NCBI GenBank assembly: GCA_026416895.1
Contig: JAOAEH010000029.1
Coordinates: 228 to 64,227 of the forward strand
Source: Elusimicrobiales bacterium
GTDB lineage: Bacteria; Elusimicrobiota; Elusimicrobia; Elusimicrobiales; UBA9959
Reading direction: 5' to 3'
Length of the DNA: 64,000 bases
Shown: piece after piece, positions 25,484 to 64,000 of the stretch
Position numbering within the stretch: position 1 is the stretch's first letter
Layout of the letters: every line of letters begins with the position of its first letter
Made by a program: the position numbers and the translations under genes
Notes under the pieces: model-generated
Databases searched by the model: none
Told to the model about the DNA's origin: nothing
The model's input: the letters and a program-made list of their open reading frames with translations, nothing else

Positions 25484-25894
25484 TTACCCTATTATATTTT
25501 TAGATTTTGCAAACTCACCGTATTTTTTATCTTCAACTTGAATATGCTTAGTAAGCCATTCCTTTAAAAAATTAATTATATCTACGCTCAAACCAATCTG
25601 TCCTCTTTTAAATCTACTTTCAAAATCCCCTACTTTTATGACAAATGCTTTATGTGAATTTATATGAGATTGAGATTCATTAAAATTTATCTCTTTGAAA
25701 AAATCTTCCTCATTTTTAAAATGTGTTTGAGAATATTTTATCAACTCAGAGATAATACCTCCCAATATATCCTTTGATTTTCCTTGTGACATTGCCAAAT
25801 TTAGATGGTTTATTAAAGAAACCAATTTTTTATGTTCTTGATCAAACTTATCTATTCCTACAGAAAGAGATTCATTCCAATTTATTAAATTCAT
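25484..25894 (-). CDS. Stand-alone bacteriohemerythrin
   Basis: 136 aa with FDQEHKKL; THFKNEE; HINSHKAF; KHIQVEDKKY. Clear paralogue of the MCP N-terminal domain. Confidence 0.9.
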   Translation of the reverse strand: MNLINWNESLSVGIDKFDQEHKKLVSLINHLNLAMSQGKSKDILGGIISELIKYSQTHFKNEEDFFKEINFNESQSHINSHKAFVIKVGDFESRFKRGQIGLSVDIINFLKEWLTKHIQVEDKKYGEFAKSKNIIG

Positions 25895-27248: not shown

Positions 27249-27632
27249 TTAAATACTTTCAATAATCTGTATTAGTTTTAATTCACTTTCTTTAAAATCT
27301 TTATCTTCCAATCCTTCATTTTTTATCTTCTCAAAGCTTATCTTTATATTTGAAATACACTCTTCTATAATTGGTATTTTATTTGAAGGTATATTTTTAT
27401 TTAAATTTTTAAGCTTTGTAAATAAATTTTCAATTTCCTTTAAAATCTTTGCTGTATTATCAAATCCCATCTGCATAAACATACCTTTCAATGTGTGCGT
27501 AGATATTCTTATTGCTTCTTGTGCAGAATAATCTCCTTTTTTTAAAGCCTCCATAGCTTGTTCAATATCTTTTATCCTTAATTGAGCCTCTTCCAAAAAT
27601 ATTGATAAAAATTCATTTGTTGCTTCCATCAT
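27249..27632 (-). CDS. Stand-alone Hpt phosphotransfer protein resembling the CheA P1 domain
   Basis: 127 aa with EFLSIFLEEAQLRIKDIE...IRISTHTLKGMFMQMGF...ENLF, i.e. the HTLKG phospho-His context and four-helix layout of CheA P1. Confidence 0.8.
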   Translation of the reverse strand: MMEATNEFLSIFLEEAQLRIKDIEQAMEALKKGDYSAQEAIRISTHTLKGMFMQMGFDNTAKILKEIENLFTKLKNLNKNIPSNKIPIIEECISNIKISFEKIKNEGLEDKDFKESELKLIQIIESI

Positions 27633-28135: not shown

Positions 28136-28162
28136 ATATCCAAATATTTTTAAAAAACTTTA
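28136..28162 (-). promoter_or_regulatory. Sigma-28 (FliA)-like promoter upstream of the REC-Hpt-cheY-cheX-cheW-hemerythrin-MCP operon
   Basis: Minus strand reads TAAA (28162-28159, overlapping the TAA stop of the 157-aa gene), a 15-nt spacer gttttttaaaaatat, then TTGGATAT (28143-28136). It shares TAAAGTT with the flgM and 62573 promoters. The -10 element is weaker. Confidence 0.4.
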
Positions 28163-30766: not shown

Positions 30767-31128
30767 TAGTTAACTAACTCCTTTTGTTGTTTTTTTAAAA
30801 TAGAAGTAAGTTGTGAATATGGTATATTAAGCATAAAAGATATTTCTTTAAGTTTTAAGCCACTTTTTCTCATTTTATCTAAAATTTCATAATTCAACCT
30901 CAATTGATTTACATTCGGTGTATTATTAATCTCCTCAAGTTTTTTATTTAATTTTTTTATTTCGCTTTCAATAACTTCAATCTTAGATAATATTTGCTTG
31001 TTATCTTCTTCAAATATCATATGGTCTATAAAATTTTTAAGTCCTTTTTTTCCAGTTTTTTTCTCGAAATATTTATATAAAATAAAAATAATACCTATTC
31101 CTAACGATAACATTATTCCACTTATCAT
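30766..31128 (-). CDS. Membrane-anchored small protein with coiled coil and C-terminal HTH-like segment
   Basis: N-terminal TM ISGIMLSLGIGIIFILY, a coiled-coil centre, and a C-terminal GLKLKEISFMLNIPYSQLTSILKKQ resembling sigma region 4 / LuxR-type HTH. The start overlaps the fliA stop by 4 nt. Confidence 0.45.
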   Translation of the reverse strand: MISGIMLSLGIGIIFILYKYFEKKTGKKGLKNFIDHMIFEEDNKQILSKIEVIESEIKKLNKKLEEINNTPNVNQLRLNYEILDKMRKSGLKLKEISFMLNIPYSQLTSILKKQQKELVN

Positions 31129-31835
31129 ATTTTACTCCTTAAATATGCTTTAATTTTGTTTATAGCTGATGATAAAATTTGTGAAATTCTTGATTCAGTG
31201 AGTTCTAATATGTTTCCAATTTCTTTAAGATTTAGATCTTCATAAAAATATAAACTAACAACAATTTTTTCTTTTTCTGGTAATTTTTCTAATGCTTCTG
31301 AAACAAGTTTTATTTTTAATTCTCTCTCTACATTTTCTTCAGGCGTATAAAAATCAAGTCTGTTTACTATTTCAAAATCTTCATTTAATTCATCAATAGG
31401 TATAAAGTATATAGGAGATGAATTTTTAAGATGCTCATAGTATTCCTCTATACTCCACCCAAGCTCTTTTGTTATTTCTGCATCCGATGGTATTTCTCCA
31501 TTTTTTGAGGTAAGATTTTCAGTAACTTTTTCAACAATTTTAGCTTTTTCTTTTACACTTCTTGGTATCCAATTCATACTCTGTAGAAAATTTAGTATTG
31601 AACCCCTAATTCTATATCTTGCATATGCTTCAAACTTAGTATTTCGACTTTCATCAAATCGTGAGATTGCTTCATATAATCCTACCATTCCAACTGAAAC
31701 TAAATCTTCATAATCAACACCTGGTGGTAGATTATATGATAACTTTGAAGCTATATTTTTAACGAGCGGAATGTATTTTTTCAACTTTTCATCCGCTTGA
31801 TTATATTTTTTATCAACTTCTCTTTGTGTTATCAT
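31125..31835 (-). CDS. fliA: Flagellar sigma factor FliA (sigma-28)
   Basis: Region 2 DLVSVGMVGLYEAISRFDESRNTKFEAYARYRIRGSILNFL, region 4 EDLNLKEIGNILELTESRISQILSSAINKIK. 236 aa. Confidence 0.92.
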   Translation of the reverse strand: MITQREVDKKYNQADEKLKKYIPLVKNIASKLSYNLPPGVDYEDLVSVGMVGLYEAISRFDESRNTKFEAYARYRIRGSILNFLQSMNWIPRSVKEKAKIVEKVTENLTSKNGEIPSDAEITKELGWSIEEYYEHLKNSSPIYFIPIDELNEDFEIVNRLDFYTPEENVERELKIKLVSEALEKLPEKEKIVVSLYFYEDLNLKEIGNILELTESRISQILSSAINKIKAYLRSKI

Positions 31836-41547: not shown

Positions 41548-43065
41548 CTATTCTAAAAGGATTGCTCTTACAAGTTCTTCAATAGTGAAAGGTTTTTTTA
41601 TACACATTAAATTATTTTTTTCAAAGAAAGAAAAAAGATTAGTATCCAATATATCAGCGGTAACAAAAATAAATTTAGTTTTATTTTTATACTTTAAATA
41701 CAAATCTATACCATTACCATCTGGTAAAACAACATCACAGATAACTAAATCATAAGATTGAATATTATAATTTTCTATTTCCACAATTCTTTTTGTTATA
41801 TCAACTTTGTTCTCTTTTGAAAAAAATTTTAATAAAAACTCTGTAAAATTCTCATCATCATCAACAATTAATATATTTTTATTTCTAATTTTTGATTCTA
41901 TTTTTTTATTAATATTGGTAGTTACTTTAGTTATGACATCTTGAGTAGTTGGTAAAGAAATTATAAAACGTGCTCCTTTTTTTTCTTGCTTGTCAACCAT
42001 AATCTCCCCATCATGCTCTTTAATTATTTTTTTTGCTATATATAAACCCAAACCCGTTCCACCATTCTTTTTTGTTGAAAAAAATGGTTCAAATATCTTG
42101 TCTACAATCTGAGGTTCTATAACCCTTCCAGTATTAAATATTTCAATAATAATATTCTTTTTATTAGAATAACATTTAATTTCTAAATATCTGTCTTTAG
42201 GTGGTATTTGTATAAGTTCATCTATAGAATTTATTATTATATTGTAAAAAACTTGTTGTAATTCACTAAAGTAACCTAACACTGTAAGATTTTCTCCTTG
42301 AAAACTTATGTTTATTTTTTCTATATTATTTTTTCTAAAGTGATAGTTAAGGAATAATAAAACACTTTCTATTAACTCTTTTATTTCTATATATTCTTTT
42401 TCCATATTTTTCTTTCTAACAAATTTAAGCAAATTTTCAGTTATATTTTTACACTGTTGAGCTGCTTTAGTTACTATTTTAAGATCTTGTCTAATATCAT
42501 CTTCTAGCGTCTCATCTTCTATCAAAATATTTGCAATTCCATATATACTTGCTAAAGGATTATTTAAATCATGAGCAATTCCGGATATGAGTTTGCCCAA
42601 AACATCTAACCTTTGATAATGAATTAAATCCTTTTCTTTTGACATTATAAGTTTTTTCTGTTCCTCTATTTTTGATATATCTTCAATCACTAATATATTG
42701 ATTTTGTCACCATTTAAATGATAAGGTATTAAGGTATATTTGCAATGTATTTCAACTCTATTAGATCTAACATTTCTAAAAACAACAGAATTTGTAAAAA
42801 AAGATTTTGCAGATGTTTCAAGAAATTTCTTAAACTCTTTATATGAAAATATATCACCAAATATAATTTTAAATCCACTCTTTATAACATCATTTCTTTC
42901 AAATCCAAAAACTTCATTAAAAGAATCATAATCTATATAAATAATATCCAGATCATCATCTAATATTACTAAGACTTTGTTTAATGAGCCAATCACAACT
43001 TTGGCTAAATCAAATTTTTCATCAATAAACCTTTTCTCTAAAAATGCTTTATTCTTTTTATTCAT
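41548..43065 (-). CDS. Hybrid sensor histidine kinase (PAS, HisKA, HATPase_c, receiver)
   Basis: LDVLGKLISGIAHDLNNPL, YNIIINSIDEL, GGTGLGL, then REC (ILIVDDDENF...LVICDVVLPDGNG...IKKPF). Confidence 0.9.
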   Translation of the reverse strand: MNKKNKAFLEKRFIDEKFDLAKVVIGSLNKVLVILDDDLDIIYIDYDSFNEVFGFERNDVIKSGFKIIFGDIFSYKEFKKFLETSAKSFFTNSVVFRNVRSNRVEIHCKYTLIPYHLNGDKINILVIEDISKIEEQKKLIMSKEKDLIHYQRLDVLGKLISGIAHDLNNPLASIYGIANILIEDETLEDDIRQDLKIVTKAAQQCKNITENLLKFVRKKNMEKEYIEIKELIESVLLFLNYHFRKNNIEKINISFQGENLTVLGYFSELQQVFYNIIINSIDELIQIPPKDRYLEIKCYSNKKNIIIEIFNTGRVIEPQIVDKIFEPFFSTKKNGGTGLGLYIAKKIIKEHDGEIMVDKQEKKGARFIISLPTTQDVITKVTTNINKKIESKIRNKNILIVDDDENFTEFLLKFFSKENKVDITKRIVEIENYNIQSYDLVICDVVLPDGNGIDLYLKYKNKTKFIFVTADILDTNLFSFFEKNNLMCIKKPFTIEELVRAILLE

Positions 43066-43156: not shown

Positions 43157-43723
43157 TTACTTAAACAAATTACAAACAAATTCGATTATCTTATTAAATT
43201 CGACAGGTTTTCTAAAATATCCATCTATTAATCTTTTAATCTCTTTTATATCCTCGCCATCTGCTTCCCCAGTAATTACTATAAACCTTATTGATGATAA
43301 ATTTTTATCTTCTTTAACTTTTTTTATAAGAGTAATACCATCTATTTTTGGCATTACTATATCTATCAACATTAAATCTGGTTTATTATTACCTAAAGCT
43401 ATCAAAGCACTGTAACCATCTTCATAATCGTAAATCTCAAATATATTATTTTTTTTAGAAAAAGCTTTAACCAAAGATTTTCTAAACACCTCATCATCAT
43501 CAACTATAAATATTTTTTTCTTTTCAGCAACTAATTCTTGAGGAATTGGGAAATTATATTCTTTTAAAAAATCTAATAAATCTTGCTTAGTTACTCTGTG
43601 ATGTCCTCCAGGAGTAACATAAGACTTAAGTTTTCCTTGATTAATCCAATTAATTACTGTTGAAGGATATACTCCACATATTTTACTTATTTCAAAAGTA
43701 GAAAAACCTTTCTTTTTAAACAT
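43157..43723 (-). CDS. Response regulator with N-terminal excisionase/MerR-type HTH and C-terminal receiver
   Basis: FSTFEISKICGVYPSTVINWINQGKLKSYVTPGGHHRV (HTH_17-like), then REC (KIFIVDDDEVFRK...LMLIDIVMPKIDG...VITGE...FRKPV). Confidence 0.8.
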   Translation of the reverse strand: MFKKKGFSTFEISKICGVYPSTVINWINQGKLKSYVTPGGHHRVTKQDLLDFLKEYNFPIPQELVAEKKKIFIVDDDEVFRKSLVKAFSKKNNIFEIYDYEDGYSALIALGNNKPDLMLIDIVMPKIDGITLIKKVKEDKNLSSIRFIVITGEADGEDIKEIKRLIDGYFRKPVEFNKIIEFVCNLFK

Positions 43724-44285: not shown

Positions 44286-45278
44286 TTAAAAACAAAGTAA
44301 ATCCCTTTCATCTACTATTCCCAACAATTTATTATTTTCATCTACTACAGGTATATTGTCAAAACCGAATTTTTGCATTTTCATTATTATATCTTCAACT
44401 TTCATAAATTTTTTTGCTGTAATTGGGTGAAATGTCATTAACTTATTAATCGGCATTTTCAAATCAATATCATTCTGAAATAGGGTTCTTCTTAAATCTC
44501 CGTCTGTAAAAAAACCTTTTAGAATTAATTCTTTATCTACTATACAAACAGCACCTATTTTAAAAGATGTCATCTTTTCTATTGCCTCTGCTAAATTAGA
44601 ATCTTCATATATAAAAGGGGTTTCAGATAGAGGCCTCATTATTTCTTCTATATTTTTATTTTTAAAACCAAGGAAACCTATAGGATGATTATAAGAAAAA
44701 TCTTTTGGAGTTATACCTTTTATTTTTGCTACAGAAAACCCTATAATATCTCCCAAACAAATCATTGCAACAACTGAAGAAGATGGAGCAAGTCCCATAA
44801 AACATGCTTCTTTTACATACTTTACTTCCAATGGTATCGTTGAGTTCTTAAATATGAATGAATTACTATCTGATGTAATAGATATCACTAGGATTTCTCT
44901 TTTATTTGCCTCTATTAAAAGCTCAACAAGTTCTTTTGTTTTCCCTGAATAAGAAAAAAGGAATAATATATCATCTTTAGATAAAGAACCTATATCTCCA
45001 TGAAAAGCATCAAGAGGGTCCAAAAAAAATGATGGAATTGATAATGATGAGAATGTAGCAGATACTTTCAAAGCTACATATCTTGATTTTCCTACCCCAC
45101 TAAATACTATCTTACCTTTAGCATTAGCAATCAACAAAACTGCTTTGATGAAATTTTCATTTATTGCTTTGTGTTGCAAAAATATAGCATTTGCTTCGCT
45201 GTCTATTACCTGTGCAGCTATATTTATAATTTCATTTCTTGTTATTGAATAAATTTGCTTATTTTTTTCATTTTCCAT
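44286..45278 (-). CDS. kpsF: KpsF/GutQ-family sugar-phosphate isomerase (SIS + tandem CBS), arabinose-5-phosphate isomerase-like
   Basis: SIS motifs VFSGVGKSRYVALKVSATFSSLSIPSFFLDPLDAFHGDIG and FSYSGKTKE. CBS pair with GFFTDGDLRR. Confidence 0.7.
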   Translation of the reverse strand: MENEKNKQIYSITRNEIINIAAQVIDSEANAIFLQHKAINENFIKAVLLIANAKGKIVFSGVGKSRYVALKVSATFSSLSIPSFFLDPLDAFHGDIGSLSKDDILFLFSYSGKTKELVELLIEANKREILVISITSDSNSFIFKNSTIPLEVKYVKEACFMGLAPSSSVVAMICLGDIIGFSVAKIKGITPKDFSYNHPIGFLGFKNKNIEEIMRPLSETPFIYEDSNLAEAIEKMTSFKIGAVCIVDKELILKGFFTDGDLRRTLFQNDIDLKMPINKLMTFHPITAKKFMKVEDIIMKMQKFGFDNIPVVDENNKLLGIVDERDLLCF

Positions 45279-45565
45279 ATTTCGCTACATATTAATTTTT
45301 TTGAATTTAACACAATATCTAAATTATTCTTATTTTTTTCTATTATATTTTTAAGTAAGTAAATTATTTTTTCTTTATCTTCCCTATCAAAATATTTATC
45401 TTCAAAAAAATCAGCTAAAATATTTATATATTTATTTTTTAATCTTTCTATCCTTAAAATTGAATATAAATGCTTTTCTTCTATTGCCATCTTTTCAAGA
45501 CTTAATATTCTTTCCAAATCAGTTAAAAAATCTATTATCGTTTTTTTATAGGCTAATTTAAACAT
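45242..45565 (-). CDS. Hypothetical helical protein (107 aa)
   Basis: ORF in operon orientation overlapping both neighbours. All-helical heptad-like composition. No assignable motif. Confidence 0.35.
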   Translation of the reverse strand: MFKLAYKKTIIDFLTDLERILSLEKMAIEEKHLYSILRIERLKNKYINILADFFEDKYFDREDKEKIIYLLKNIIEKNKNNLDIVLNSKKLICSEIWKMKKISKFIQ

Positions 45566-46674
45566 ATATTTATTATCTCTTTTACTCTATTAACATAAGT
45601 ATTTCTTACATTTTTTTCTAATATTTTTTTTTGTGCATCTTCTCTTAATTTTGAATTATTTATCCAGTATCTTATCTTAAAAATTAGCTCGTCAGCATTA
45701 GAAAAAGAATCAATCTCTCTGCCTTTTTCAAAAAAACTGAAACATCCTCTTCTCTCTTCATTTACTATAGAAAAAGCTCCACATGCAGAAGATTCAAATA
45801 ATCTTGGATTTGGAGAAATACCTTCAACACGATTCACATTACTACCTAAACTGCTAGAAGAATATGACATTCTATGATGATTTAAAACAATTTTAGCATT
45901 ACTGTAATATTTTGAAGCAATATTAGGAGGGACAAATTTATGTTCAACTAATTTTCTAAGCGAACTATCTTTATTAAATTCCCAATTTCCTACTATCCTT
46001 ATTTTTAAATCTTTAATATAAGGATAAATTTTTTCTAACACATTAACTCTTTCAGGGAAAGCACTTCCAATTATACATATATCACTTTCATATCTATCAT
46101 CTTTTTGAGGATAAAATATTTCGTCATCATAACCAGGAGGTAAATAATATACTTTATTATTTTTCCTTAAATGTATAGGTACTGCATTTTTTTCTATTGT
46201 AAAAACGTAATCATAATAATGTGAATACTTTTTTGACTGATCTATCTCATGAGGATCATCTAATAACCAAACAGCAGTTTTTATTCCATTAAATTTTAAT
46301 TTCTTTATGAATAATATAGGAATATTAGCTCCATGAATAAAAAGTACTAGTTTTAGTTTATTTTGATTTATTTTAGAAAAAATATTTTCAAAAATATGAT
46401 ATGTAGTATATTTTCGATTGAACTTTACATAAAGGAATTTTTCCGATAATTTTTTTTCCTCTTCAAATTTTTCAGCATCATCTATTGGTTTAAAACTTAA
46501 TATCTCTATGCCATTCCTTATGAAAGCATTCTCAACTGATTTTGCTATATCCCAACTAGACCATCTTATAAGAGGATATATCTTAGATAATGCAAAATCT
46601 TCTGATTCAAAACATAATTTTGAGTCAACATTAACATTCCATAAATAAAACGGATATATCAAACCTATTTTCAT
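45553..46674 (-). CDS. CgeB-like / DUF3880-type glycosyltransferase
   Basis: C-terminal pattern SPNPRLFESSACGAFSIVNEERRG...FSNADELIFKIRYWINNSKLREDAQKKILEKNVRNTYVNRV, typical of CgeB-family GT1-like proteins found in flagellin-glycosylation loci. Confidence 0.6.
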   Translation of the reverse strand: MKIGLIYPFYLWNVNVDSKLCFESEDFALSKIYPLIRWSSWDIAKSVENAFIRNGIEILSFKPIDDAEKFEEEKKLSEKFLYVKFNRKYTTYHIFENIFSKINQNKLKLVLFIHGANIPILFIKKLKFNGIKTAVWLLDDPHEIDQSKKYSHYYDYVFTIEKNAVPIHLRKNNKVYYLPPGYDDEIFYPQKDDRYESDICIIGSAFPERVNVLEKIYPYIKDLKIRIVGNWEFNKDSSLRKLVEHKFVPPNIASKYYSNAKIVLNHHRMSYSSSSLGSNVNRVEGISPNPRLFESSACGAFSIVNEERRGCFSFFEKGREIDSFSNADELIFKIRYWINNSKLREDAQKKILEKNVRNTYVNRVKEIINICLN

Positions 46675-46677
46675 AGT

Positions 46678-48474
46678 TTAAAAAAAGTAACTATCAACTT
46701 TTGTTAACATTTTCTCATTTGTTTTCTTATAAATTATATTTTTCTTTATTTTTAAAAGAAAATTTCTAAGTTCATAAGAATGTTTAAATAACTTATCGAA
46801 TAAGAGTCTTTCTTTCAACATTTCTGTAAGTATTTCATGATTATAATTTTTAAATTCTTCATCTATTTTTAAATAATTTATAAAATAATCTAAATCAAAA
46901 TACAATATATTAGAAATTTCTGGATCCTCATTTATCCATTCATAAATATTTTTAATTTCAGAGATTTTATTAATTTTTTTAGAATCTTTTTCAGCTATAC
47001 CATCTATAACTATATTTAATAGTTTTTTAGCCTTTAAAGATAAATATATAACTCTAGATAACCTAGGAATAAAAAAACTAAGTTCATTTAAAAAAGATTC
47101 ATAATCAAAAAAAGATTCTTTTAATGAAAGTTGTTCTATTGTTTTAGACGGATAAAAATAATATTTACAGTAATACTCAACAAAATCAAAAAAAGGTAAA
47201 TTTTTGGCATTTTTAATAATTGCACCACCTTCAGTTGAGTTAAATATTGTAATGTTTTTATAACTTTCTATTATTCTTTCAAAATCTTTCAATATAGTAA
47301 AAAGTGAACTAGAAGTTTTTACTTTTCCACCATAATATCCATCTACATCTACAAGATTAGTAAAATCTTTTATAACTTCATTAGTAGCAACTCCTTCACA
47401 ATGAGTTTGATTATTAATATAAGATAGATCTTGACCTATAAGAGTTATAGGATTACATCCCATCCTTACACAAAGATGTAAAGCAGCATGAGAAGTTGAA
47501 CCACCTAAAGGTAATTCTCCTTTAAATAAAGTAAATTTAGATATAAACTCTGATAGAGGATGTGTGTTAAAAACTCTAAAATATTTCCCTCCAAATTTAT
47601 AATGATGTTTAACACAATTAGGATATACTTGAAAATCAAACACAAATACTAATTGAGAAGTATCAATTCCTTCAAAATGTTTATAATTTTTAGAAGTAAA
47701 ATCTATAGAAACAACAATATCAGGTCTAATTTTCTCATCTAATAAAACTCTTAAAGCAGTATCAACACATACAATCACAGCCTTATCTTTTGCTTTTTTT
47801 AAAATAGGCAGTTGTTTTTTCAAAGAAGGGCCTGCAGAAGTAATTATAGCTGGTTTATCTTTAAAAACTCCAAAAAGATTCGAAACATCACTGGACTCAA
47901 CAAGATATTGAAAGTTTTCTGTTATATTTTTTGTTATATTTGCTGCTATCATCTTTCTTGTTTCATAAATACATTTTTCTACTTCTATAACCTTTTCAAT
48001 TTCCTCTTTAACTTTTAAGATGAAATTTGAAAAAAATATCTTGTAAGCTGGGTTTTCTATTATAACTGGGTTAGAAAATAATATTTCTTTTCTAAAAGAT
48101 TCAAAATACTTTTTAAAATCATCTAAATTTTCCAAAGAATATATTTTGGAGACATTTTTTTCTAAAATTTCTTCTAAGTTTCTTATTTTAACAATTTTAT
48201 TTAATATTCCAATATCTGGTTCAAATATTATCAAATCACTGTCTGGTTTTTTGATTTTAACTATTTCTTCAAATTCATATCCTGCACCAAATCCTATAAG
48301 TAATATTAACTTTGATGATGAAATTGGATAATTTGATATTATATCTTTTGCTTTTAAGTATGGTTCCTTAAATGAGTTTAATGATATTTTTCTTACTCCA
48401 TCTGATAATTTAAAAACCTTTACTTGTTTTTCTTCTAAAATTTCTAAAAAAATATTTTTAGTTAATAATTCCAT
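46678..48474 (-). CDS. maf: Motility-associated factor (Maf) family flagellin glycosyltransferase (MptE-like/DUF115 core)
   Basis: KPAIITSAGPSLKKQLPILKKAKDKAVIVCVDTALRVLLDEKIRPDIVVSIDF...GGSTSHAALHLCVRMGCNPITLIGQDLSY. Confidence 0.75.
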   Translation of the reverse strand: MELLTKNIFLEILEEKQVKVFKLSDGVRKISLNSFKEPYLKAKDIISNYPISSSKLILLIGFGAGYEFEEIVKIKKPDSDLIIFEPDIGILNKIVKIRNLEEILEKNVSKIYSLENLDDFKKYFESFRKEILFSNPVIIENPAYKIFFSNFILKVKEEIEKVIEVEKCIYETRKMIAANITKNITENFQYLVESSDVSNLFGVFKDKPAIITSAGPSLKKQLPILKKAKDKAVIVCVDTALRVLLDEKIRPDIVVSIDFTSKNYKHFEGIDTSQLVFVFDFQVYPNCVKHHYKFGGKYFRVFNTHPLSEFISKFTLFKGELPLGGSTSHAALHLCVRMGCNPITLIGQDLSYINNQTHCEGVATNEVIKDFTNLVDVDGYYGGKVKTSSSLFTILKDFERIIESYKNITIFNSTEGGAIIKNAKNLPFFDFVEYYCKYYFYPSKTIEQLSLKESFFDYESFLNELSFFIPRLSRVIYLSLKAKKLLNIVIDGIAEKDSKKINKISEIKNIYEWINEDPEISNILYFDLDYFINYLKIDEEFKNYNHEILTEMLKERLLFDKLFKHSYELRNFLLKIKKNIIYKKTNEKMLTKVDSYFF

Positions 48475-51620: not shown

Positions 51621-51625
51621 ATAAT

Positions 51626-51664
51626 CCTCCTTGATTATTATTTCAAAGGACTTCCCTGTCCTTT
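51626..51664 (-). promoter_or_regulatory. fliC 5' leader with two CsrA-type GGA sites (hairpin-loop site plus SD-overlapping site)
   Basis: The mRNA reads aaaggac-AGGGAA-gtccttt (51664-51645; 7-bp stem, GGA in the loop), then gaaataataatcAAGGAGGattatATG (SD at 51630-51626). Confidence 0.6.
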
Positions 51665-51673
51665 CATCTTTAT

Positions 51674-51699
51674 ATATCAATATAAATTTAAATTATTTA
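51674..51699 (-). promoter_or_regulatory. Weak sigma-28-like promoter candidate for fliC
   Basis: Minus strand reads TAAA (51699-51696, in the last codons of csrA), a 14-nt spacer, then ATTGATAT (51681-51674). Only the GATAT core matches the local nCGGATAw -10, and the spacer is 1 nt short. Confidence 0.3.
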
Positions 51700-55206: not shown

Positions 55207-55233
55207 TTATCCGCAAAAAAATATAAAACTTTA
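55207..55233 (-). promoter_or_regulatory. Sigma-28 (FliA)-type promoter of flgM-flgN-flgK-flgL-fliW-csrA
   Basis: Minus strand reads TAAA (55233-55230, sharing TAA with the flgJ stop codon), a 15-nt spacer gttttatattttttt, then GCGGATAA (55214-55207). That is 7/8 to the classical GCCGATAA with correct spacing. Confidence 0.7.
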
Positions 55234-57383: not shown

Positions 57384-58147
57384 GGCTTTAAATTATTTAC
57401 TATTTTTAACATTTCATCTGCAGTTTCCATTGCTTTAGAATTTATTTCAAATGCTCTTTGAGCTGAAAGCATTCTTACCATTTCATCAACTATATCTACA
57501 TTTGACGATTCAAGAAAACCTTGCTTTATAATACCAGCACCATTTTCTGAAGGAAATGCTAAAATACTTTCTCCACTTGCATTAGTTTCTTCATACAAGT
57601 TTCCTCCAATAGACTTAAGTCCACTAGGATTTGGAAAAATTGTAAGTTCAATTCTACCTATTTCAGTAGGTTTTGATTCCCCATTTAAAACCACACTTAT
57701 AACACCGTTTTCTGATATACTTATTTCTTTTGAATTCTGTGGTATTAATATTTCAGGTTCTAATATTCTTCCAGAAGAAGTTATAAGTCTACCTTCAGAA
57801 TCAATTCTTAAAGATCCATCTCTTGTGTATTTTATACTACCATCAAAATCTCTAACTTTTAAAAAGCCATTTCCTTCTATAGCTATATCTAAAGAATTAG
57901 AAGTTTGTAATAAAGAACCCTGAAAAAATAATTTTTTTGTAGAAGAAAGTTCAACTCCTATTCCTATCTCTAGCTGTTTGGATTGAGATGTCAGTGAATT
58001 TGAATCAATATATCCTAAATCTTTAAACTCAGCTCTTGATTTTTTAAAAGAGGTAGTATTTACATTTGCTAAATTATTAGCTATTATATCTAAGTTAGTC
58101 TGTTGAGCCTTTAAACCACTTGAAGCAGTTAAAAGTGCTCTTATCAT
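57380..58147 (-). CDS. flgG: Flagellar distal rod protein FlgG
   Basis: MIRALLTASSGLKAQQTNLDIIANNLANVNTTSFK... and LESSNVDIVDEMVRMLSAQRAFEINSKAM. Confidence 0.93.
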   Translation of the reverse strand: MIRALLTASSGLKAQQTNLDIIANNLANVNTTSFKKSRAEFKDLGYIDSNSLTSQSKQLEIGIGVELSSTKKLFFQGSLLQTSNSLDIAIEGNGFLKVRDFDGSIKYTRDGSLRIDSEGRLITSSGRILEPEILIPQNSKEISISENGVISVVLNGESKPTEIGRIELTIFPNPSGLKSIGGNLYEETNASGESILAFPSENGAGIIKQGFLESSNVDIVDEMVRMLSAQRAFEINSKAMETADEMLKIVNNLKP

Positions 58148-58158
58148 AAAAACCTCCT

Positions 58159-58830
58159 CTAAAACTTAGATGAAGTAGAAATTAATTTTTTTGTTAAATC
58201 TATTTCAGTATTTATTGTTTTTTGAACAAATTCTGTATTTCTCAATATTTTTATTAATGATGTCATTTCTTCTATAGGATTAACATTAGAAGATTCAATA
58301 TATCCCTTCAATATATCAGGAGTCACATCTTCCAATTTAGAATCGGTATAGTAAATACTATTACCATAAGAAATCAAATCAAATTTTCCTTTCAATGCTA
58401 CAACTCTTATGTTATCTATTTTTCTTGATTTTTGAATAATATCTCCATTTCTTTCTATATAAAAAGGGGTTCCTTTTTCTAATTTAATTTTTTCATTATT
58501 TCTATTAACAAGATAAAAATTACCGATTTTAATGTATCCTTCTTCATCTAAATATAAATTACCTTTGCGAGTAATAAAATATTTTTCACCGTCTGTTACA
58601 ACAAAAAAAGCATCATTTTGATTTGCTATATCATAATCAGAATCTGTTTTGATCAAATTTCCTCTAGAAACATCTACATATTTTTCTATATTTAAATTAT
58701 TTTCAACACTTAATTTTGAAACTTCTCTCATATATCCGTCAGTAGAAGAATTTGCAATATTTTTCGAAGTGCTATCTATCTTTTTAAAAAGTCCTTCTAA
58801 AATACTTGATGATATCCTTAAAAAATCCAT
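58159..58830 (-). CDS. flgF: Flagellar proximal rod protein FlgF
   Basis: KNIANSSTDGYMRE... and the C-terminal IESSNVNPIEEMTSLIKILRNTEFVQK. Confidence 0.85.
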   Translation of the reverse strand: MDFLRISSSILEGLFKKIDSTSKNIANSSTDGYMREVSKLSVENNLNIEKYVDVSRGNLIKTDSDYDIANQNDAFFVVTDGEKYFITRKGNLYLDEEGYIKIGNFYLVNRNNEKIKLEKGTPFYIERNGDIIQKSRKIDNIRVVALKGKFDLISYGNSIYYTDSKLEDVTPDILKGYIESSNVNPIEEMTSLIKILRNTEFVQKTINTEIDLTKKLISTSSKF

Positions 58831-58847
58831 AAATCCTCTTTTAAAAT

Positions 58848-58876
58848 ATTTTACATATTTTAATTTATAATGTCAA
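58848..58876 (-). promoter_or_regulatory. Sigma-70-type promoter of flgF-flgG-flgA-flgH-flgI-flgJ
   Basis: Minus strand reads TTGACA (58876-58871), a 17-nt spacer ttataaattaaaatatg, then TAAAAT (58853-58848). SD AGAGGA and ATG 58830 follow. Confidence 0.6.
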
Positions 58877-58898
58877 TATTTTAATTATAAATGAAAAA

Positions 58899-59588
58899 TT
58901 AATCTTCGAATTTATATCCAAATCCAACTATGTTTTTTATACAATCTTTAGCTTGTTTTAGCTTTTTTCTCAAATTTGATATATGAACTTCAACAGTATG
59001 TTTATCACTTTCAGTAAGAGAATTATAGTTCCATATTCTTTCTAACAAATAGTTTACGCTAAATACTTTACCTGGATTTTTTACAAGAAGGGTCAAAATT
59101 TCGTATTCTTTTTTTGTTAATTTTATCCTTTCATTTTGAACAAAAACTTCTTTTTTTTCTTCATCTATTTTAATTATTCCTCTTTCTAAAACTTCATAAG
59201 AGAAATTTCTTCCGGCATTTGCATTTATAATTTTTCTAATTTTAGCCTCTAATATCCTATATGAGAAAGGTTTCACTAAAAAATCATCTATACCTTTCTC
59301 ATAACCTTTAATCTGAATATTTTCATCAAAAATTTCTCCAGACATCAAGATAAAAGGAATATTTTTTGTTTCTTTACACATTCTAATTATTGAAAAAATA
59401 GTTATTCCATCTATAGATGGCATTTTAACATCAGAAACTATTACTGAAGGAGATAATTCTTTTGCCATTGCTATACCTATAGACGAATCAAGTGCATAAT
59501 AAGAATAAAAATCTCTTTTTCTTAAAAATTCAGCAAGAGATTTTGCAAAATCTTTATCATCATCAATTATTAATACTTTCTCTTTCAT
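58899..59588 (-). CDS. OmpR/PhoB-family response regulator (REC + winged helix)
   Basis: KVLIIDDDKDFAKSL...VIVSDVKMPSIDG...LVKPF; winged helix LTKKEYEILTLLVKNPGKVFS...HISNLRKKL...VGFGYKF. ATG 59588 has SD GGAGGTG. Confidence 0.9.
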   Translation of the reverse strand: MKEKVLIIDDDKDFAKSLAEFLRKRDFYSYYALDSSIGIAMAKELSPSVIVSDVKMPSIDGITIFSIIRMCKETKNIPFILMSGEIFDENIQIKGYEKGIDDFLVKPFSYRILEAKIRKIINANAGRNFSYEVLERGIIKIDEEKKEVFVQNERIKLTKKEYEILTLLVKNPGKVFSVNYLLERIWNYNSLTESDKHTVEVHISNLRKKLKQAKDCIKNIVGFGYKFED

Positions 59589-60756
59589 TTTCACCTCCAA
59601 TAGATTTAATTTTAATAAGAAGATATTCAAATTTTTTAATTGTTTTGCTCCACGAAAATCTTTGCGCAGTTTTTATTCCATTCTTTACTATTGGTATATA
59701 ATTTTTTCTATTAACTACAAAACTTAAAATTTCTTTAACAATATCTTGATAATTCTTTTGTCTAATTACTACTGCATTATACCTATCTCTTACATAATCA
59801 GAATTTCCTACATTTGTAGTTAAACATAAAGTTCCACAAGCCATAGCTTCTATAACAGTTAAAGGAAAAGAATCTTCAATAGAAGTATTTATAAAAACAT
59901 CAGAATTTGAATATATATTCGCTAAGTTTTCATCGAAAACTTTACCATAATAACGAAAAATATTTGTATCATTATTAATTATTTTTTTTATATAATCATC
60001 TCCAAATAAATGTATTTTAAAAGGAATTGTCGGAATTTTTTTCAATTCTTCTATAAATTTAAAAAAATATAAGGAACCCTTTAAAGGATTTTTAGAAAAA
60101 TAATAACATATATCTAAGTGTTTTTTTGTAATATTATATTTTATCTCCGGATCTATTTTCGGCTTAAAAACACAAGTATCTACTCCTGGATATATAATCA
60201 GACTTTTTCTTTTGTACATTTTATATATTCTCTTACTTAATTCTTTTGAATTAGAAATAATAATTAATGGCAATTGGTAAGTTAATCTAGCTGTTTTTTT
60301 TATCAAATCATTTGTATAAAACTTTTCTTCAAATCCTTGAATAAAATATATTGGTATAGCATTATTCTTATTATAATAAGCTGCATATGCAGTAATATTA
60401 TGAGTTGCTATTATAAAATCAGACTGAGGTAACTTATCTAAAAAAGAATCAGTTATCTTTCCTATTACAAAAAAATAAAATGGTAAATTACTATTTAATG
60501 AACTATCTAATGATAAAAACTCATTTGAAAAATCTCTAACTATAGAATCAATATCAATTGCACTAAAAGCTTTTAGCTGAGTATTTTGAAATTCTTTTCT
60601 AATTAAATTTTTCAAACCTACATCCCATTTTATTACCGTTGAAGGAGTTACAAGATATATTTCATGCCCACGTTGAGATAATCTATCCATTATTTCATAT
60701 ATTACTTGACTGCCACCAGTATAACCTATATCTGGTAATAAAAATGAAATTTTCAT
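59563..60756 (-). CDS. GT4-family (group 1) glycosyltransferase
   Basis: MKISFLLPDIGYTGGSQVIYEIMDRLSQRGHEIYLV..., ...SIEDSFPLTVIEAMACGTLCLTTNVGNSDYV. Confidence 0.85.
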   Translation of the reverse strand: MKISFLLPDIGYTGGSQVIYEIMDRLSQRGHEIYLVTPSTVIKWDVGLKNLIRKEFQNTQLKAFSAIDIDSIVRDFSNEFLSLDSSLNSNLPFYFFVIGKITDSFLDKLPQSDFIIATHNITAYAAYYNKNNAIPIYFIQGFEEKFYTNDLIKKTARLTYQLPLIIISNSKELSKRIYKMYKRKSLIIYPGVDTCVFKPKIDPEIKYNITKKHLDICYYFSKNPLKGSLYFFKFIEELKKIPTIPFKIHLFGDDYIKKIINNDTNIFRYYGKVFDENLANIYSNSDVFINTSIEDSFPLTVIEAMACGTLCLTTNVGNSDYVRDRYNAVVIRQKNYQDIVKEILSFVVNRKNYIPIVKNGIKTAQRFSWSKTIKKFEYLLIKIKSIGGENERESINN

Positions 60757-62541
60757 TTAATTATTCAATTCTTCTTCAATAGTATTTATTAATTCTCTTA
60801 TAGTATAGGGTTTCTGAATAAATTTAAATCCTTTTTTTTCAATTTCATACCATCTAGATTTACTATCAACATAACCACTATTAAAAATTATCTTTATTTG
60901 GGGATAACTCATCTTTATTCGATTTATTAAATCAAAAGAATTTCCATCTTCCAATTCAATATCAGTAAATATTAAATCAATATTTTCATTTTTTAATATA
61001 TTAATCATTTCATTAATCTTTGAACAGGAAACCACTAAATAACCATTTTCTTTTAATATTCTCTCCACAAATCTTCTCAAGCCTTCATCATCCTCACATA
61101 TCAAAATCTTTTTTACTTTGTGAGATAATACTTTTTGATATTGTATTCTTTCTACTAAACTTTTTTCAACATCATAAAGTGGAATTTTAAATTCAAAAAA
61201 TAAAAAATCTTCTAACTTGTCTATTTTCAACCACCCACCAAGTTTTTCAATATTCTTTTCTATAGATTGAAAAGAAAAGTAACTATATATTTTCTCAGTA
61301 TCAGTATTATTTATAATAAAATACAAATCCTTTAAATTTTTTAAATCATACGAATTACATCTACCAGCTATATTTATAACAGCAAAATTTCTTGCTGATG
61401 TTTCAAGATTTGAAACCGAAGATATAATAATTTTCTCTTCTCTTCTTAATGAAATTATTAATTCTCCACCATCTATTATAAACTCAGATAAATATGCACA
61501 CAAACCATATATTATTTGCTGAAGAATTATTGGATCAGCTTCAACAAAAAGATTTTTCTCATCTATCCTAATTATACCTTTTATATCCTTTCTTATAACT
61601 AACCTTATAACCTCTTTCACATAATCTATAAGTTCTGATATATTTATTTTTTCTTTTTTGAAAATAATTCTATTAGAAAACATAGTATATCTGTTAACTA
61701 CTTCAATTAACTTTTTAATAGAATTATTCAATTCATTAAACTCATTAGAAATTTCGGGATATTTATTTATTTTTTTGTCTATTACTTCTAAATATCCTAT
61801 AATTGATGACAAAAAATTATTTATCTGATGAGTAGTTACACTTAAAAATTCATGCAAAAAATCCATCTTAAGATTTATTGTTTGTTTATCTATTGTCTTT
61901 TTAATATTATCTATATTTATTAATAATCCCGCAGTTTTGCTTAAACTAGGAATATAAATCTCTTTACTTAAAAACCATACTAATTTTCCTTCATAATCTT
62001 GTATTTGAAACATAAATTCACATTTGGAATCAGAAAGTAAAAACATTTTTCTTTTTTTAACCCTTTCAATATGCTGAGGATTAATTCTAGTTTTCCACAA
62101 ATAAGGATCATCTCTAAAATTTTTAAATGGAATATTTAATATTTTTTCAATTGTTCTGTTTTTTAAATACCATGGCCAGTCAATTTCGAGATTTGAACTA
62201 TAAAAAACTATTTCTGGGAAAAACTTTTTAGCATCTATATTTTGCAATATTTTAATATATCCAACTAGATTATATATATTTTCTACTCTAAACTTTATAT
62301 TTTCATTTTTTATATATATAACATTAGTTTCTGAATTGATAGAAACAACTAAGCTGGAAAATTCTTCATATTCTTTAATAAAACTTTCACTACCAAAAAT
62401 GATCAATATATCATAATCTAATTTTAATAAATCTTTTGGAGTTGTCTCATTTACTTCAAAATTGTTTACTAAATCCCTTTTCAAATTTTCTAAAAAATCA
62501 GATACATCTTTTTTTTCCTTTAAAATTAATACCTTTTCCAT
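60757..62541 (-). CDS. Histidine-kinase-like hybrid protein with intact H-box and receiver but degenerate ATP-binding domain (pseudo-kinase)
   Basis: The H-box LSVTTHQINNFLSSIIGYLE retains His. In place of the N, G1 and G2 boxes it reads ILQQIIYGLCAYLSEFIIDGGELIIS, INIAGRCNS and FIINNTDTEKIYSYFSF (compare NLLINSKDAMPNGG, EDNGKGMD and GTGLGL in the 549-aa kinase). The C-terminal REC is intact (ILICEDDEG...LIFTDIELEDGN...IQKPY). The N-terminus resembles a receiver without the acidic pocket. Confidence 0.7.
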   Translation of the reverse strand: MEKVLILKEKKDVSDFLENLKRDLVNNFEVNETTPKDLLKLDYDILIIFGSESFIKEYEEFSSLVVSINSETNVIYIKNENIKFRVENIYNLVGYIKILQNIDAKKFFPEIVFYSSNLEIDWPWYLKNRTIEKILNIPFKNFRDDPYLWKTRINPQHIERVKKRKMFLLSDSKCEFMFQIQDYEGKLVWFLSKEIYIPSLSKTAGLLINIDNIKKTIDKQTINLKMDFLHEFLSVTTHQINNFLSSIIGYLEVIDKKINKYPEISNEFNELNNSIKKLIEVVNRYTMFSNRIIFKKEKINISELIDYVKEVIRLVIRKDIKGIIRIDEKNLFVEADPIILQQIIYGLCAYLSEFIIDGGELIISLRREEKIIISSVSNLETSARNFAVINIAGRCNSYDLKNLKDLYFIINNTDTEKIYSYFSFQSIEKNIEKLGGWLKIDKLEDFLFFEFKIPLYDVEKSLVERIQYQKVLSHKVKKILICEDDEGLRRFVERILKENGYLVVSCSKINEMINILKNENIDLIFTDIELEDGNSFDLINRIKMSYPQIKIIFNSGYVDSKSRWYEIEKKGFKFIQKPYTIRELINTIEEELNN

Positions 62542-62572
62542 AATAAAACCAAATATTACATTCTATTAATTA

Positions 62573-62599
62573 TTATCCGTAATATATGATTGAACTTTA
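62573..62599 (-). promoter_or_regulatory. Sigma-28 (FliA)-type promoter of the pseudo-kinase/GT4/OmpR operon
   Basis: Minus strand reads TAAA (62599-62596, sharing TAA with the upstream gene's stop codon), a 15-nt spacer gttcaatcatatatt, then ACGGATAA (62580-62573). It has the same TAAAGTT...CGGATAA layout as the flgM promoter. Confidence 0.6.
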
Positions 62600-63463
62600 A
62601 TTTTTTCTTCTATCAAAAAGAATCATATTATATTTTCTAGGAACAAATGATTTTAGATATTTCTTAATCTCAGAAGAAATACTAATTATTTGGCCATAAT
62701 TTGTTATTTTTCTATATTTATTTGATACGCATGAAATTGATAATGTTATATTACTTCTTATTTTAGATTTTAAAACCTTATAAAAATTAAAATAAAAAAG
62801 TTTTGATATTTCATTTGCGATTTTGTTCCATTCTTCCCACCTACATATAACACTAAAATTATTACCGTTTATATGTGCTGCTAAAGAATATTTATAATCT
62901 TTTATAATTTCTTCTAAGTTCAATGAAAATTTTTTCAAAACAAAATCTCCAAATTCGTAACCCATTATTTCGTTTATTTTTCTAAAACTATCTATATCTA
63001 AATCCATATAAACAAAAACTTCTTTATTTTCTATCAAATTCCTTATATACTTTTCTAAAAATATTGAAGATGGTAAATCCGTTAAAGGACTAATACCTTT
63101 AAAATATTTATCTCTTTCAATAAAATTTTTAACTCTTGCTATTAATTCTTGCCACAAAATTGGTTTTTTAATAAAATAATCTGCTCCAAATTTATAGCAT
63201 TCAAATTCATCAATTTCTAAACCGCTTATCATTATAATATTAATGTCTTTATCCTTTAATCTTAATAACTTAAGAATATCAATACCATTAAAATCTCTAA
63301 GCTCAACATCTATTATAGCTAAGTTAACTTTATTTCTTTTAACAAAATCTAAAAATTTGACTCCTTCATTAAAATAAAAAAGATTTAAATTATTTTTTAA
63401 AAAAATTTTATTAGAAAGTTCTACTAATTTTATATCATCATCAACAAATGCAATTTTATACAT
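62597..63463 (-). CDS. Response regulator with degenerate GGDEF domain (REC-GGDEF*, motif NGNNF)
   Basis: REC KIAFVDDDIKLVE...LAIIDVELRDFNG...IKKPI. The GGDEF-like part reads TDLPSSIF...YMDLDIDSFRKINEIMGYEFGDFVLKKF...AAHINGNNFSVIC, with NGNNF in place of GGDEF. ATG 63463 has SD GGAG. Confidence 0.8.
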   Translation of the reverse strand: MYKIAFVDDDIKLVELSNKIFLKNNLNLFYFNEGVKFLDFVKRNKVNLAIIDVELRDFNGIDILKLLRLKDKDINIIMISGLEIDEFECYKFGADYFIKKPILWQELIARVKNFIERDKYFKGISPLTDLPSSIFLEKYIRNLIENKEVFVYMDLDIDSFRKINEIMGYEFGDFVLKKFSLNLEEIIKDYKYSLAAHINGNNFSVICRWEEWNKIANEISKLFYFNFYKVLKSKIRSNITLSISCVSNKYRKITNYGQIISISSEIKKYLKSFVPRKYNMILFDRRKN

Positions 63464-63464
63464 T

Positions 63465-64000
63465 TTATCTCCAACCACATTGGTTAAATACTTCTTCTTC
63501 TTTTGATATTATTTCATTTATTTTCTTTATTTCCATATCAGAAAGAACAATATCATTATTCCAATATTTTTTCAAAATTAAGAAAAATTTTTCTTTACTT
63601 TCTTCATCTATTAATTCACTACCTGGATTTCTTCTAATCTCATTCAAAAAATTAGAGTTTTGTTTAAATTTCCATACTATATAACGAGCTTTTAAATCAA
63701 TATTTTGTTTTTGAATTTCTGAAATATTTTTAATAAGGACTTGACAATCATCCGATATAGAGTATCTAAAATTTATTTCTTCTAAAAACATATTATTGAA
63801 ATTTTGTAACTCCTGAAAGTCTATCTTAAATAGTTCTTCTTCAAAAACTACTTTAGGAAAATTAGATTTTAAAACTTTGATAATACTTTTGCTTTTTGGT
63901 TCAATAAGTTTTATAAATAATTCAAATTCATCAAATTTTTTATATAAATCTCCAGCTATTATTAAATCTATATCTGTAGCATTTTCATTGTAAGCTATAG
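63465..64000 (-). CDS. 3' part of a hypothetical protein, 5'-truncated by the window edge (possible nucleotidyltransferase-fold fragment)
   Basis: The frame of the 63465-63791 ORF stays open to position 64000 (...IAYNENATDIDLIIAGDLYKKFDEFELFIKLIEPKSK...NNMFLEEINF...). DIDLII is reminiscent of NTase motifs, but this is weak evidence. Confidence 0.4.
   Translation of the reverse strand, partial: IAYNENATDIDLIIAGDLYKKFDEFELFIKLIEPKSKSIIKVLKSNFPKVVFEEELFKIDFQELQNFNNMFLEEINFRYSISDDCQVLIKNISEIQKQNIDLKARYIVWKFKQNSNFLNEIRRNPGSELIDEESKEKFFLILKKYWNNDIVLSDMEIKKINEIISKEEEVFNQCGWR

Follow-up and report, generated by a model that had tools for sequence, protein, structure and literature searches.

The locus described here raises the question of whether a hybrid histidine kinase that has lost its ATP-binding boxes can still take part in phosphoryl signalling, and whether it does so under flagellar control. 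The stretch analysed (64,000 nucleotides of Elusimicrobiales bacterium contig JAOAEH010000029.1, hereafter the window) has a G+C (GC) content of about 25%, and nearly all of it is a single flagellar and chemotaxis supercluster on the minus strand. The upstream end of this supercluster is formed by three tightly packed genes (62541–58899, minus strand) for a 594-amino-acid sensor, a glycosyltransferase of family 4 (GT4) and an OmpR-type response regulator. With a probability only slightly better than even (about 0.55), we take them to be a clade-specific two-component module, expressed in the FliA class, whose sensor works as a phosphotransferase or phosphatase and not as a kinase. The features at issue are:

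60757 to 62541, minus strand: predicted kinase-dead hybrid sensor ('pHK'), 594 amino acids, with pseudo-receiver, PAS, dimerization and histidine phosphotransfer (DHp), degenerate catalytic and ATP-binding (CA) and receiver domains
59563 to 60756, minus strand: GT4-family glycosyltransferase, 397 amino acids (PF00534, 67 bits; PF13692, 66.7 bits)
58899 to 59588, minus strand: OmpR/PhoB-family response regulator, 229 amino acids (PF00072, 67 bits; PF00486, 84.1 bits)
62573 to 62599, minus strand: candidate sigma-28 (FliA)-type promoter, TAAAGTTc-N11-aCGGATAA (27-mer TAAAGTTCAATCATATATTACGGATAA)

The initial annotation had read the first protein as keeping its histidine context and C-terminal receiver, with the ATP-binding boxes lost and an N-terminus resembling a receiver without acidic pocket. 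This was borne out by Pfam, by hhalign and by an alignment of the window protein with seven orthologs, the three genuine hybrid kinases of the window and one kinase from locus L002; a PAS domain at about residues 110–215, between the pseudo-receiver and the DHp domain, had been missed. The only annotation of the NCBI entry that is 100% identical to the protein is 'response regulator' [Elusimicrobiales bacterium]. The domains are:

62227 to 62541, minus strand: residues 1–105, pseudo-receiver (hhalign to the receiver profile, probability 91%, E 1e-6)
61897 to 62214, minus strand: residues 110–215, PAS domain of the PAS_3 type (PF08447 in orthologs)
61666 to 61869, minus strand: residues 225–292, DHp domain with H-box T-H238-Q-I-N-N242 (His codon 61830–61828)
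61177 to 61656, minus strand: residues 296–455, degenerate CA-like domain (alignment against the three genuine kinases)
60760 to 61116, minus strand: residues 476–594, intact receiver (PF00072, 67.6 bits at 479–588; Asp527 codon 60963–60961)

The two domains that handle phosphoryl groups are preserved. His238 in THQINN aligns with the histidine of AHDFNN in the three genuine kinases, and both His238 and Asn242 (position H+4) are invariant in the 8 orthologs (mean pairwise identity of the DHp domain 0.33); the HisKA match of residues 230–289 scores 25.9 bits, just under the Pfam cut-off of 26.9. The residue at H+1 is Gln239 in the window protein, Gln in L001 and Glu or Asp in the other orthologs. 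With a mean identity of 0.52 and 31 invariant columns, the C-terminal receiver is better conserved than any other domain, and its residues D484, D485, D527, S555 and K577 are intact in the window protein. The 53 columns that are invariant over the whole protein include H238, N242, D484, D527, S555 and K577. PF08447 was recovered in L006 (52.1 bits) and L005 (33.7 bits; cut-off 25.6), just under the cut-off in P0019 (25.2 bits) and weakly in P0003; the PAS domain has a mean identity of 0.37 and the invariant residues W124, W149 and R164. The pseudo-receiver is the least conserved part (mean identity 0.18; AlphaFold2 (AF2) predicted local distance difference test (pLDDT) score below 50), its acidic pocket and acceptor Asp being gone in the window protein and still present in L006 and L007.

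The CA-like domain has lost its nucleotide signatures. No HATPase_c match to the 594-residue protein was found in Pfam at E below 0.01. The N box, FNLLINSKDAM in the genuine kinases, reads YGLCAYLSEFI in the window protein, and its first Asn is Gly or Ala in all orthologs; the G1 box (EDNGKGMD) has become AGRCNSYD, the F box (IFKPFF) LYFIIN and the G2 box (GKGTGLGL) IYSYFSFQ. The G1 Asp and the G2 glycines are absent from all 8 orthologs. The domain is nevertheless as conserved as DHp (mean identity 0.33, 7 invariant columns), and the L006 ortholog passes the Pfam threshold for HATPase_c with 45.3 bits, which shows the CA-like domain to be descended from a real catalytic one. Base composition as the cause of the motif loss (AT drift or pseudogene decay) was rejected, since the key losses are shared by orthologs from genomes of 57–61% GC. 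The AF2 model, built with four sequences, shows helices at 210–288 followed by an alpha/beta domain at 297–454 (pLDDT about 60–89 in the CA region, with one block near 42), and Foldseek matched it to PAS/LOV-DHp-CA kinases, namely YF1 (4gcz), CckA (5idj), ShkA, RetS and GacS. Set against the features of class I hybrid kinases, the protein has the His in the H-box and the acidic pocket, Asp, Ser and Lys of the receiver, and lacks the N, G1, F and G2 boxes of the CA domain and (in the window protein) the acidic H+1 residue. By sequence criteria it thus cannot be a canonical ATP-using kinase. We infer that it has lost the ability to autophosphorylate. It retains, under strong constraint, all the parts that accepting phosphoryl groups and handing them on requires.

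The sensor family is small. A profile search of 1.84 billion representative proteins returned six 50%-identity clusters at 285 bits or above; the next matches were ordinary hybrid kinases at 239 bits and below. P0019, P0020 and P0021 show the same motif losses. Of the 80 loci collected in a genome scan, three (L005–L007) are orthologous, the remainder serving as negative controls for the promoter motif, and L087 is the only true ortholog from a metagenome scan, whose other 25 matches are unrelated kinases or receivers. The carriers are a small group of flagellated Elusimicrobia, in which the gene orders are:

Window and L001: receiver with degenerate GGDEF, sensor, GT4, regulator, flgF operon
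L085: sensor (cut by the contig end), GT4, regulator, flgF operon
L002: divergent genuine kinase and receiver; sensor, GT4, regulator, hemerythrin, flgF
L005: 329-amino-acid gene, sensor, GT4, regulator, flgF
L006: sensor, GT4, regulator, inserted gene, flgF
L007: sensor, GT4, regulator, then kinases and a gene for a receiver with degenerate GGDEF
L087: sensor, regulator, flgF; no GT4
L003/L004: sensor, flgF; neither GT4 nor regulator

All three genes occur together in 7 of the 9 lineages. In 8 of 9 the sensor gene stands next to, or nearly next to, that of the OmpR-type regulator (directly in L087). Of the 9 loci, 8 adjoin the flgF operon, and at 8 of 9 the module is embedded in flagellar clusters. 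The divergent kinase next to the module in L002 is an ortholog of the 549-amino-acid kinase of the window. The conserved core is sensor plus regulator beside the rod operon, because the GT4 gene is dispensable in one lineage (L087); it is a frequent accessory, and 'conserved trio' would overstate the case.

Three lineages have, near the module, a gene for a receiver joined to a degenerate GGDEF domain (window 62597–63478, minus strand; L001 9086–9961; L007 13460–14425). Its active site reads NGNNF in the window and GCDDF in L007 where GGDEF would be found, and the RxxD inhibitory site is missing. The product is probably not a cyclase.

A sigma-28-type promoter had been proposed ahead of the three genes, and the site is present at 62599–62573. 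No match to the 27-mer is expected in shuffled sequence. The looser pattern AAAG-N15/16-CGGATAA has 2 sites in the 64 kb, where 0.05 are expected and 0 of 100 shuffles reach 2; the other site lies 20 nucleotides upstream of flgM:

55207 to 55233, minus strand: reference sigma-28-type promoter of flgM, TAAAGTTT-N11-GCGGATAA

The -10 element of the sensor-gene site ends 32 nucleotides before the sensor ATG (62541), and its -35 element overlaps the stop codon (the TAA of the 27-mer) of the upstream receiver-GGDEF gene. The site agrees at 13 of 16 positions with the enterobacterial FliA consensus TAAAGTTT-N11-GCCGATAA, which occurs among the mapped FliA promoters of Escherichia coli (PMC4183435). 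The lineage's own -10 consensus is GCGGATAA, with G and not C at the third position, and the flgM promoters of five lineages (window, L001, L002, L005, L085) deviate in the same way (TAAAGTx-N12-GCGGATAA). Conservation of the promoter in relatives, which the initial annotation had suggested checking, was found in four further lineages, in the form seen at flgM: the motif stands at the orthologous position upstream of the sensor gene in L001, L006 and L007, and in L005 upstream of an extra 329-amino-acid gene that abuts the sensor gene. L085 and L087 do not enter this comparison, their contigs ending at the sensor gene. The motif also precedes flgM in L001, L002, L005 and L085 and flagellin in L002. 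In L006 and L007 (57–61% GC) about 0.01 chance sites per locus are estimated, and among the 77 unrelated loci 5 stray matches were counted. The window displays two promoter classes, sigma-28-type sites on the one hand and TTGACA-17-TAAAAT or TATATT (at the flgB and flgF operons and motA) on the other, and it encodes a FliA/WhiG sigma factor (31125–31835). The module is most likely transcribed by FliA, judging from these motifs. The proposed link to FlgM export and completion of the hook-basal body follows only from promoter class and context and is put forward as a hypothesis.

Two further observations concern these sites. In L005 alone, the sensor gene is separated from the sigma-28-like site by the 329-amino-acid gene (L005 6657–7646, plus strand), for which searches of Pfam and the PDB returned no relative. 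A third, weaker sigma-28-like site of the window (28136–28161, minus strand; TTAAAGTT-N12-tTGGATAT) overlaps the preceding gene's stop codon and lies ahead of a receiver-Hpt-receiver-cheX-cheW chemotaxis operon; it shares its TGGATAT variant with the L002 sensor gene.

How the module might work is suggested by two precedents. In HisKA kinases the acidic H+1 residue is necessary for kinase activity only, and Thr or Asn at H+4 for phosphatase activity only (PMC3510030). ChpT, with a kinase-like DHp and a closed Bergerat-fold domain, binds no ATP and serves as a dedicated histidine phosphotransferase that shuttles phosphate (PMC3433190). The sensor would then be a PAS-regulated phosphotransferase or phosphatase, because of its Gln at H+1, the invariant Asn at H+4 and the ChpT precedent. 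It would have arisen from an ordinary PAS-HisKA-HATPase-receiver hybrid kinase by loss of every ATP-binding signature. Its DHp domain, under PAS control, would pass phosphoryl groups to and fro between Asp527 of the sensor's receiver and the OmpR-type regulator encoded alongside, whose phosphorylation would be set either by a ChpT/Spo0B-like relay or by a phosphatase combined with a phosphate sink. Acetyl phosphate might be the source of the phosphoryl groups, as might a genuine hybrid kinase or the Hpt protein encoded in the supercluster, with the sensor's receiver as entry point or sink. The regulator would then control transcription of its targets, and GT4 would be co-translated with it in most lineages. 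The candidate partners, and the sigma factor, are:

31125 to 31835, minus strand: fliA, sigma-28 (TIGR02479 FliA/WhiG, 234.9 bits; cut-off 189.6)
5054 to 6703, plus strand: genuine PAS-HisKA-HATPase-receiver hybrid kinase, 549 amino acids, candidate phosphodonor
41548 to 43065, minus strand: second genuine hybrid kinase, 505 amino acids, candidate phosphodonor
27249 to 27632, minus strand: stand-alone Hpt protein, possible relay partner (PF01627, 39.2 bits), flanked by two single-domain receivers within the che operon

Several observations weigh against this reading, on the side of the promoter as well as of the sensor. (i) The -10 element reads CGGATAA where CCGATAA is canonical. (ii) The L002 sensor gene is preceded only by a weaker variant (AAAG-N16-TGGATAT), and upstream of the L003 sensor gene no such motif was found. 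(iii) No terminator-like site was detected within 58000–64000, so that the three genes, tightly coupled as they are, need not form a closed operon, and other promoters may contribute. (iv) L006 and L007 keep the second N-box Asn, which is lost from the other orthologs, together with a partial G1 box (SGTG) and the F box, and some residual nucleotide binding may persist in these members. (v) The AF2 model of the sensor is mediocre (mean pLDDT 60) and too poor to judge the geometry of the pocket. (vi) In Pfam and NCBIfam the sensor matched neither the ChpT family (PF10090) nor Spo0B, so that the relay role rests on analogy.

Observations (ii) and (iii) favour an alternative in which the sigma-28-like site is not a working promoter, the genes being expressed by read-through from the receiver-GGDEF gene or from sigma-70-type sites, and the regulator being a general one that merely lies near flagellar genes. 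No terminator separates the receiver-GGDEF gene from the sensor gene, the intergenic gap measures only 55 nucleotides, and the -35 element coincides in part with a stop codon. Of 52 FliA-bound sites in E. coli, 30 are intragenic, most of these without detectable transcript (PMC4183435). Chance is a poor explanation of the site, however, given the expectation of 0.05 per 64 kb. The motif has also been kept at the same place among sensors of 25–65% identity and in genomes of 25% to 61% GC, in a form identical to that of the flgM promoters of five lineages (the window's included), and the module lies inside flagellar clusters at nearly every locus. We therefore regard this explanation as rather unlikely.

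The main rival to a sensor acting on its own regulator is a RetS-like anti-kinase, whose chief target would be another sensor kinase. Paired through its DHp domain with an AHDFNN hybrid kinase in a heterodimer, it would block that kinase's autophosphorylation, drain phosphoryl groups to Asp527 or dephosphorylate the kinase's receiver, which are exactly the three mechanisms that RetS uses on GacS (PMC5992135). The three genuine hybrid kinases of the window share the H-box type, the DHp-CA structures of RetS and GacS are among the Foldseek matches, and L003 keeps the sensor with no regulator beside it. A kinase ortholog stands directly beside the module in L002, and another kinase in L007; these are, however, the only 2 of the 9 loci with a neighbouring genuine kinase, whereas the proximity of sensor and OmpR-type regulator in 8 of 9 lineages is the usual signature of a cognate pair. 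As the principal mode of action a RetS-like role is unlikely, and it may coexist with the phosphotransferase or phosphatase function favoured here.

More doubtful still is the reading in which the sensor remains a kinase, His238 being phosphorylated with ATP, either through a non-canonical CA site or by a partner's CA domain acting in trans, and feeding an ordinary phosphorelay. The CA-like domain is of full length and conserved, and the boxes retained in L006 and L007 go with a HATPase_c match above the Pfam threshold. Against this, all 8 orthologs lack the first N-box Asn, the G2 glycines and the G1 Asp, which in GHKL ATPases contacts the adenine. Moreover, the acidic residue at H+1 that autokinase activity requires is Gln in the window protein (PMC3510030), and in ChpT there is an example of a conserved CA-like domain that binds no ATP (PMC3433190). 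Residual kinase activity of the sensor is thus unlikely.

That the sensor is a functionless, pseudogene-like remnant of a hybrid kinase in an AT-rich reduced genome, as its base composition, the divergent N-terminal domain and the sub-threshold HisKA match could suggest, is hardly credible in view of an intact frame of about 590–635 amino acids in every complete copy (two more copies are cut by contig ends), the invariance of every phospho-handling residue, and the same motif losses in orthologs from genomes of about 60% GC.

At their junctions the three genes are tightly coupled. The sensor TAA directly abuts the GT4 ATG. The regulator probably starts at ATG 59588, which has a Shine-Dalgarno sequence (GGAGGTG), and TTG 59630, chosen by the open reading frame (ORF) finder, is probably wrong. 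The regulator gene thus overlaps the 3' end of the GT4 gene by 26 nucleotides (29–35 in orthologs); an overlap had been noted, as one of stop and start codons, which it is not.

The regulator itself is a complete OmpR/PhoB-family protein with an intact receiver and a winged-helix Trans_reg_C domain, and the GT4 is a GT-B-fold enzyme of the retaining type (AF2 pLDDT 80); both assignments of the initial annotation hold. The regulator matches MtrA, RegX3, DrrD and RpaA in the PDB at about 1e-27. Its identification as CtrA, PhoB or RpaB was rejected, the NCBIfam scores (RpaB 149 and PhoB 147 as the best; CtrA 108 against a cut-off of 350) lying far under the equivalog cut-offs. For GT4 the top Foldseek matches are BshA, MshA, sucrose-phosphate synthase and PglA (template modelling score about 0.68, E about 1e-15), and all NCBIfam matches fall far under their cut-offs (best BshA, 51.7 against 273.7), so that no named equivalog applies. 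Sequence and fold searches returned only generic GT4 relatives, from which no acceptor can be inferred. The named or traced matches to GT4 orthologs are from Elusimicrobia or lie in the same flagellar gene order, and the orthologs appear confined to this group.

Beside fliS and fliD lies a separate flagellin-modification island (44286–48474, minus strand), with a KpsF-like SIS-CBS sugar-phosphate isomerase, a WaaS/CpsH-like glycosyltransferase (28.9 bits) and a Maf/PseD-like protein (107 bits, under the cut-off). Flagellin glycosylation therefore needs no GT4 from the module.

The 3' boundary of the module is marked by the promoter of the next operon, between the regulator gene and flgF and conserved in 7 lineages:

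58848 to 58876, minus strand: sigma-70-type promoter of the flgF-flgG-flgA-flgH-flgI operon, TTGACA-17-TAAAAT (the region's best site, with 11 of 12 matches)

Its surroundings (TTTCATTTATAATTAAAATATTGACATTTAAAATTAAATTTTG-TATAAT) are unusually conserved among lineages (window 58848–58915, minus strand; L001 13612–13700; L085 2782–2870; L002 14041–14129; L005 11316–11404; L087 2861–2949). A tandem repeat of about 21 nucleotides (CATTTAWAATTAAAWT) spans the -35 element and the spacer; it is conserved in every lineage with the regulator next door and has diverged in the lineage without it, the upstream copy being lost in L003, the sole lineage that lacks an adjacent OmpR-type regulator. Within the AT-rich window the repeat 16-mer is no commoner than expected (10 copies against 12). 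The repeat may be a binding site of the regulator, as its conservation across lineages suggests.

These observations permit a tentative extension of the favoured reading, which we hold to be improbable as a whole. Freed FliA would drive sensor, regulator and GT4 as an extra, phylum-specific tier of flagellar control, the regulator would feed back on the rod and ring promoter downstream, the modification of an envelope or flagellar component by GT4 would keep pace with assembly, and the degenerate CA domain would perhaps be a ligand switch for a nucleotide second messenger. Cyclic diguanosine monophosphate acts on the CA domain of CckA, and the recurrent degenerate GGDEF neighbour would fit a CA domain that serves as a nucleotide-messenger switch.

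The remainder of the supercluster comprises flhB-fliR-fliQ-fliOP-fliN-flhF-flhA-motBA; the che operon; fliA; flgE through flgB; the flagellin-modification island; and fliD, fliS, flagellin, csrA-fliW, flgL, flgK, flgM, flgI, flgH, flgA, flgG and flgF. FliO and FliP are apparently fused in one ORF of 369 amino acids (9038–10147, minus strand), and in L002 Pfam likewise finds FliO and FliP on one product. The three genuine AHDFNN hybrid kinases, one of them of 1554 amino acids with many PAS-like repeats, flank or interrupt the flagellar cluster; they and their small neighbours occupy 331–4995, 5054–6703 and 6693–7013 (plus strand) and 41548–43065 and 43157–43723 (minus strand). Also found there are an HTH_17-receiver protein and a 106-amino-acid ORF without Pfam match, which takes the place of the gene for a 121-amino-acid receiver in L002, where the 549-amino-acid kinase and the small gene adjoin the module. 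A chemoreceptor with an N-terminal hemerythrin-like domain (22931–25480, minus strand) is preceded by a separate hemerythrin gene (25484–25894, minus strand), and in L002 a hemerythrin gene (13618–14010) lies between the regulator gene and flgF; the presence of such genes near motility loci hints at oxygen or iron sensing. The 5' leader of flagellin (51621–51692, minus strand), directly downstream of fliW-csrA, is predicted to form a hairpin that presents AGGGAAG, with a second GGA inside the Shine-Dalgarno sequence AAGGAGG; judged by sequence, the arrangement corresponds to the FliW-CsrA-flagellin partner switch. The flagellin start at TTG 51680 given by the ORF finder is probably wrong, and ATG 51620 fits better.

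Overall, the locus provides a concrete and conserved candidate for a regulator between the FliA tier and the rod and ring genes of Elusimicrobiota. The organisms being uncultured, it is of modest practical value. The orthologs also form a series in which a hybrid kinase loses ATP binding stepwise while the histidine, the phosphatase residue and the receiver stay: in the high-GC members the N and G1 boxes survive in part and the F box as well, whereas the AT-rich members have lost everything. Such a series should be useful for understanding how kinases become phosphotransferases or phosphatases, as ChpT and Spo0B must have done.

Among known systems, ChpT and Spo0B share with the sensor a DHp hairpin with its histidine and a Bergerat-like domain without nucleotide motifs, a description that the sensor fits by its motifs and predicted fold. 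Spo0B shuttles phosphoryl groups between receivers in the sporulation phosphorelay of Bacillus, and the Caulobacter relay ends at CtrA, a regulator of the OmpR family that has flagellar genes under its control. ChpT, in the Caulobacter CckA-ChpT-CtrA/CpdR relay, is a dimer that likewise transfers phosphoryl groups between receiver domains (PMC3433190). The sensor differs from both in deriving visibly from the AHDFNN hybrid-kinase family and in its additional PAS domain, pseudo-receiver and intact receiver; it would at most work like them, by analogy, and is a member of neither family. RetS of Pseudomonas aeruginosa, another hybrid sensor that combines DHp, CA and receiver domains, does not depend for its role on phosphorylating a regulator of its own; it takes phosphoryl groups from, dephosphorylates and blocks another kinase in the choice between motile and sessile life (PMC5992135). 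RetS is, however, a membrane protein with a periplasmic sensor, two receivers and no co-encoded regulator, whereas the 594-residue protein has a PAS domain, a paired OmpR-type regulator and no predicted membrane segment in the parts examined, and their homology is limited to the shared kinase fold. Ordinary PAS-HisKA-HATPase_c-receiver kinases (the 549- and 505-residue proteins of the window and CckA) are the nearest relatives outside the orthologous group and have the same order from PAS to receiver and the same H-box type; the sensor differs by the missing N, G1, F and G2 boxes, the acidic H+1 lost in the window protein and the added N-terminal pseudo-receiver. For a glycosyltransferase wired into flagellar regulation there is a precedent in GmaR of Listeria monocytogenes, a flagellin glycosyltransferase and MogR anti-repressor in a circuit that involves the response regulator DegU; GmaR belongs to a different glycosyltransferase family and binds a repressor. 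The promoter has the bipartite layout and spacing of enterobacterial class 3 FliA promoters, here likewise found at flgM and with fliA present, and differs in the lineage-specific G for C of the -10 element. In the literature searched nothing was found on flagellar gene regulation in Elusimicrobiota or on this module, nor any description of a pseudo-receiver-PAS-DHp-degenerate CA-receiver sensor that is encoded at the head of a rod operon, behind a promoter of the FliA type, together with a translationally coupled GT4 and OmpR-type regulator. The earlier statement that the system is undescribed thus stands for the arrangement and not for the mechanism. A kinase-like protein that relays or removes phosphoryl groups without using ATP is already known from ChpT, Spo0B and RetS, and the module is a variant of two-component signalling, not a new kind of system.

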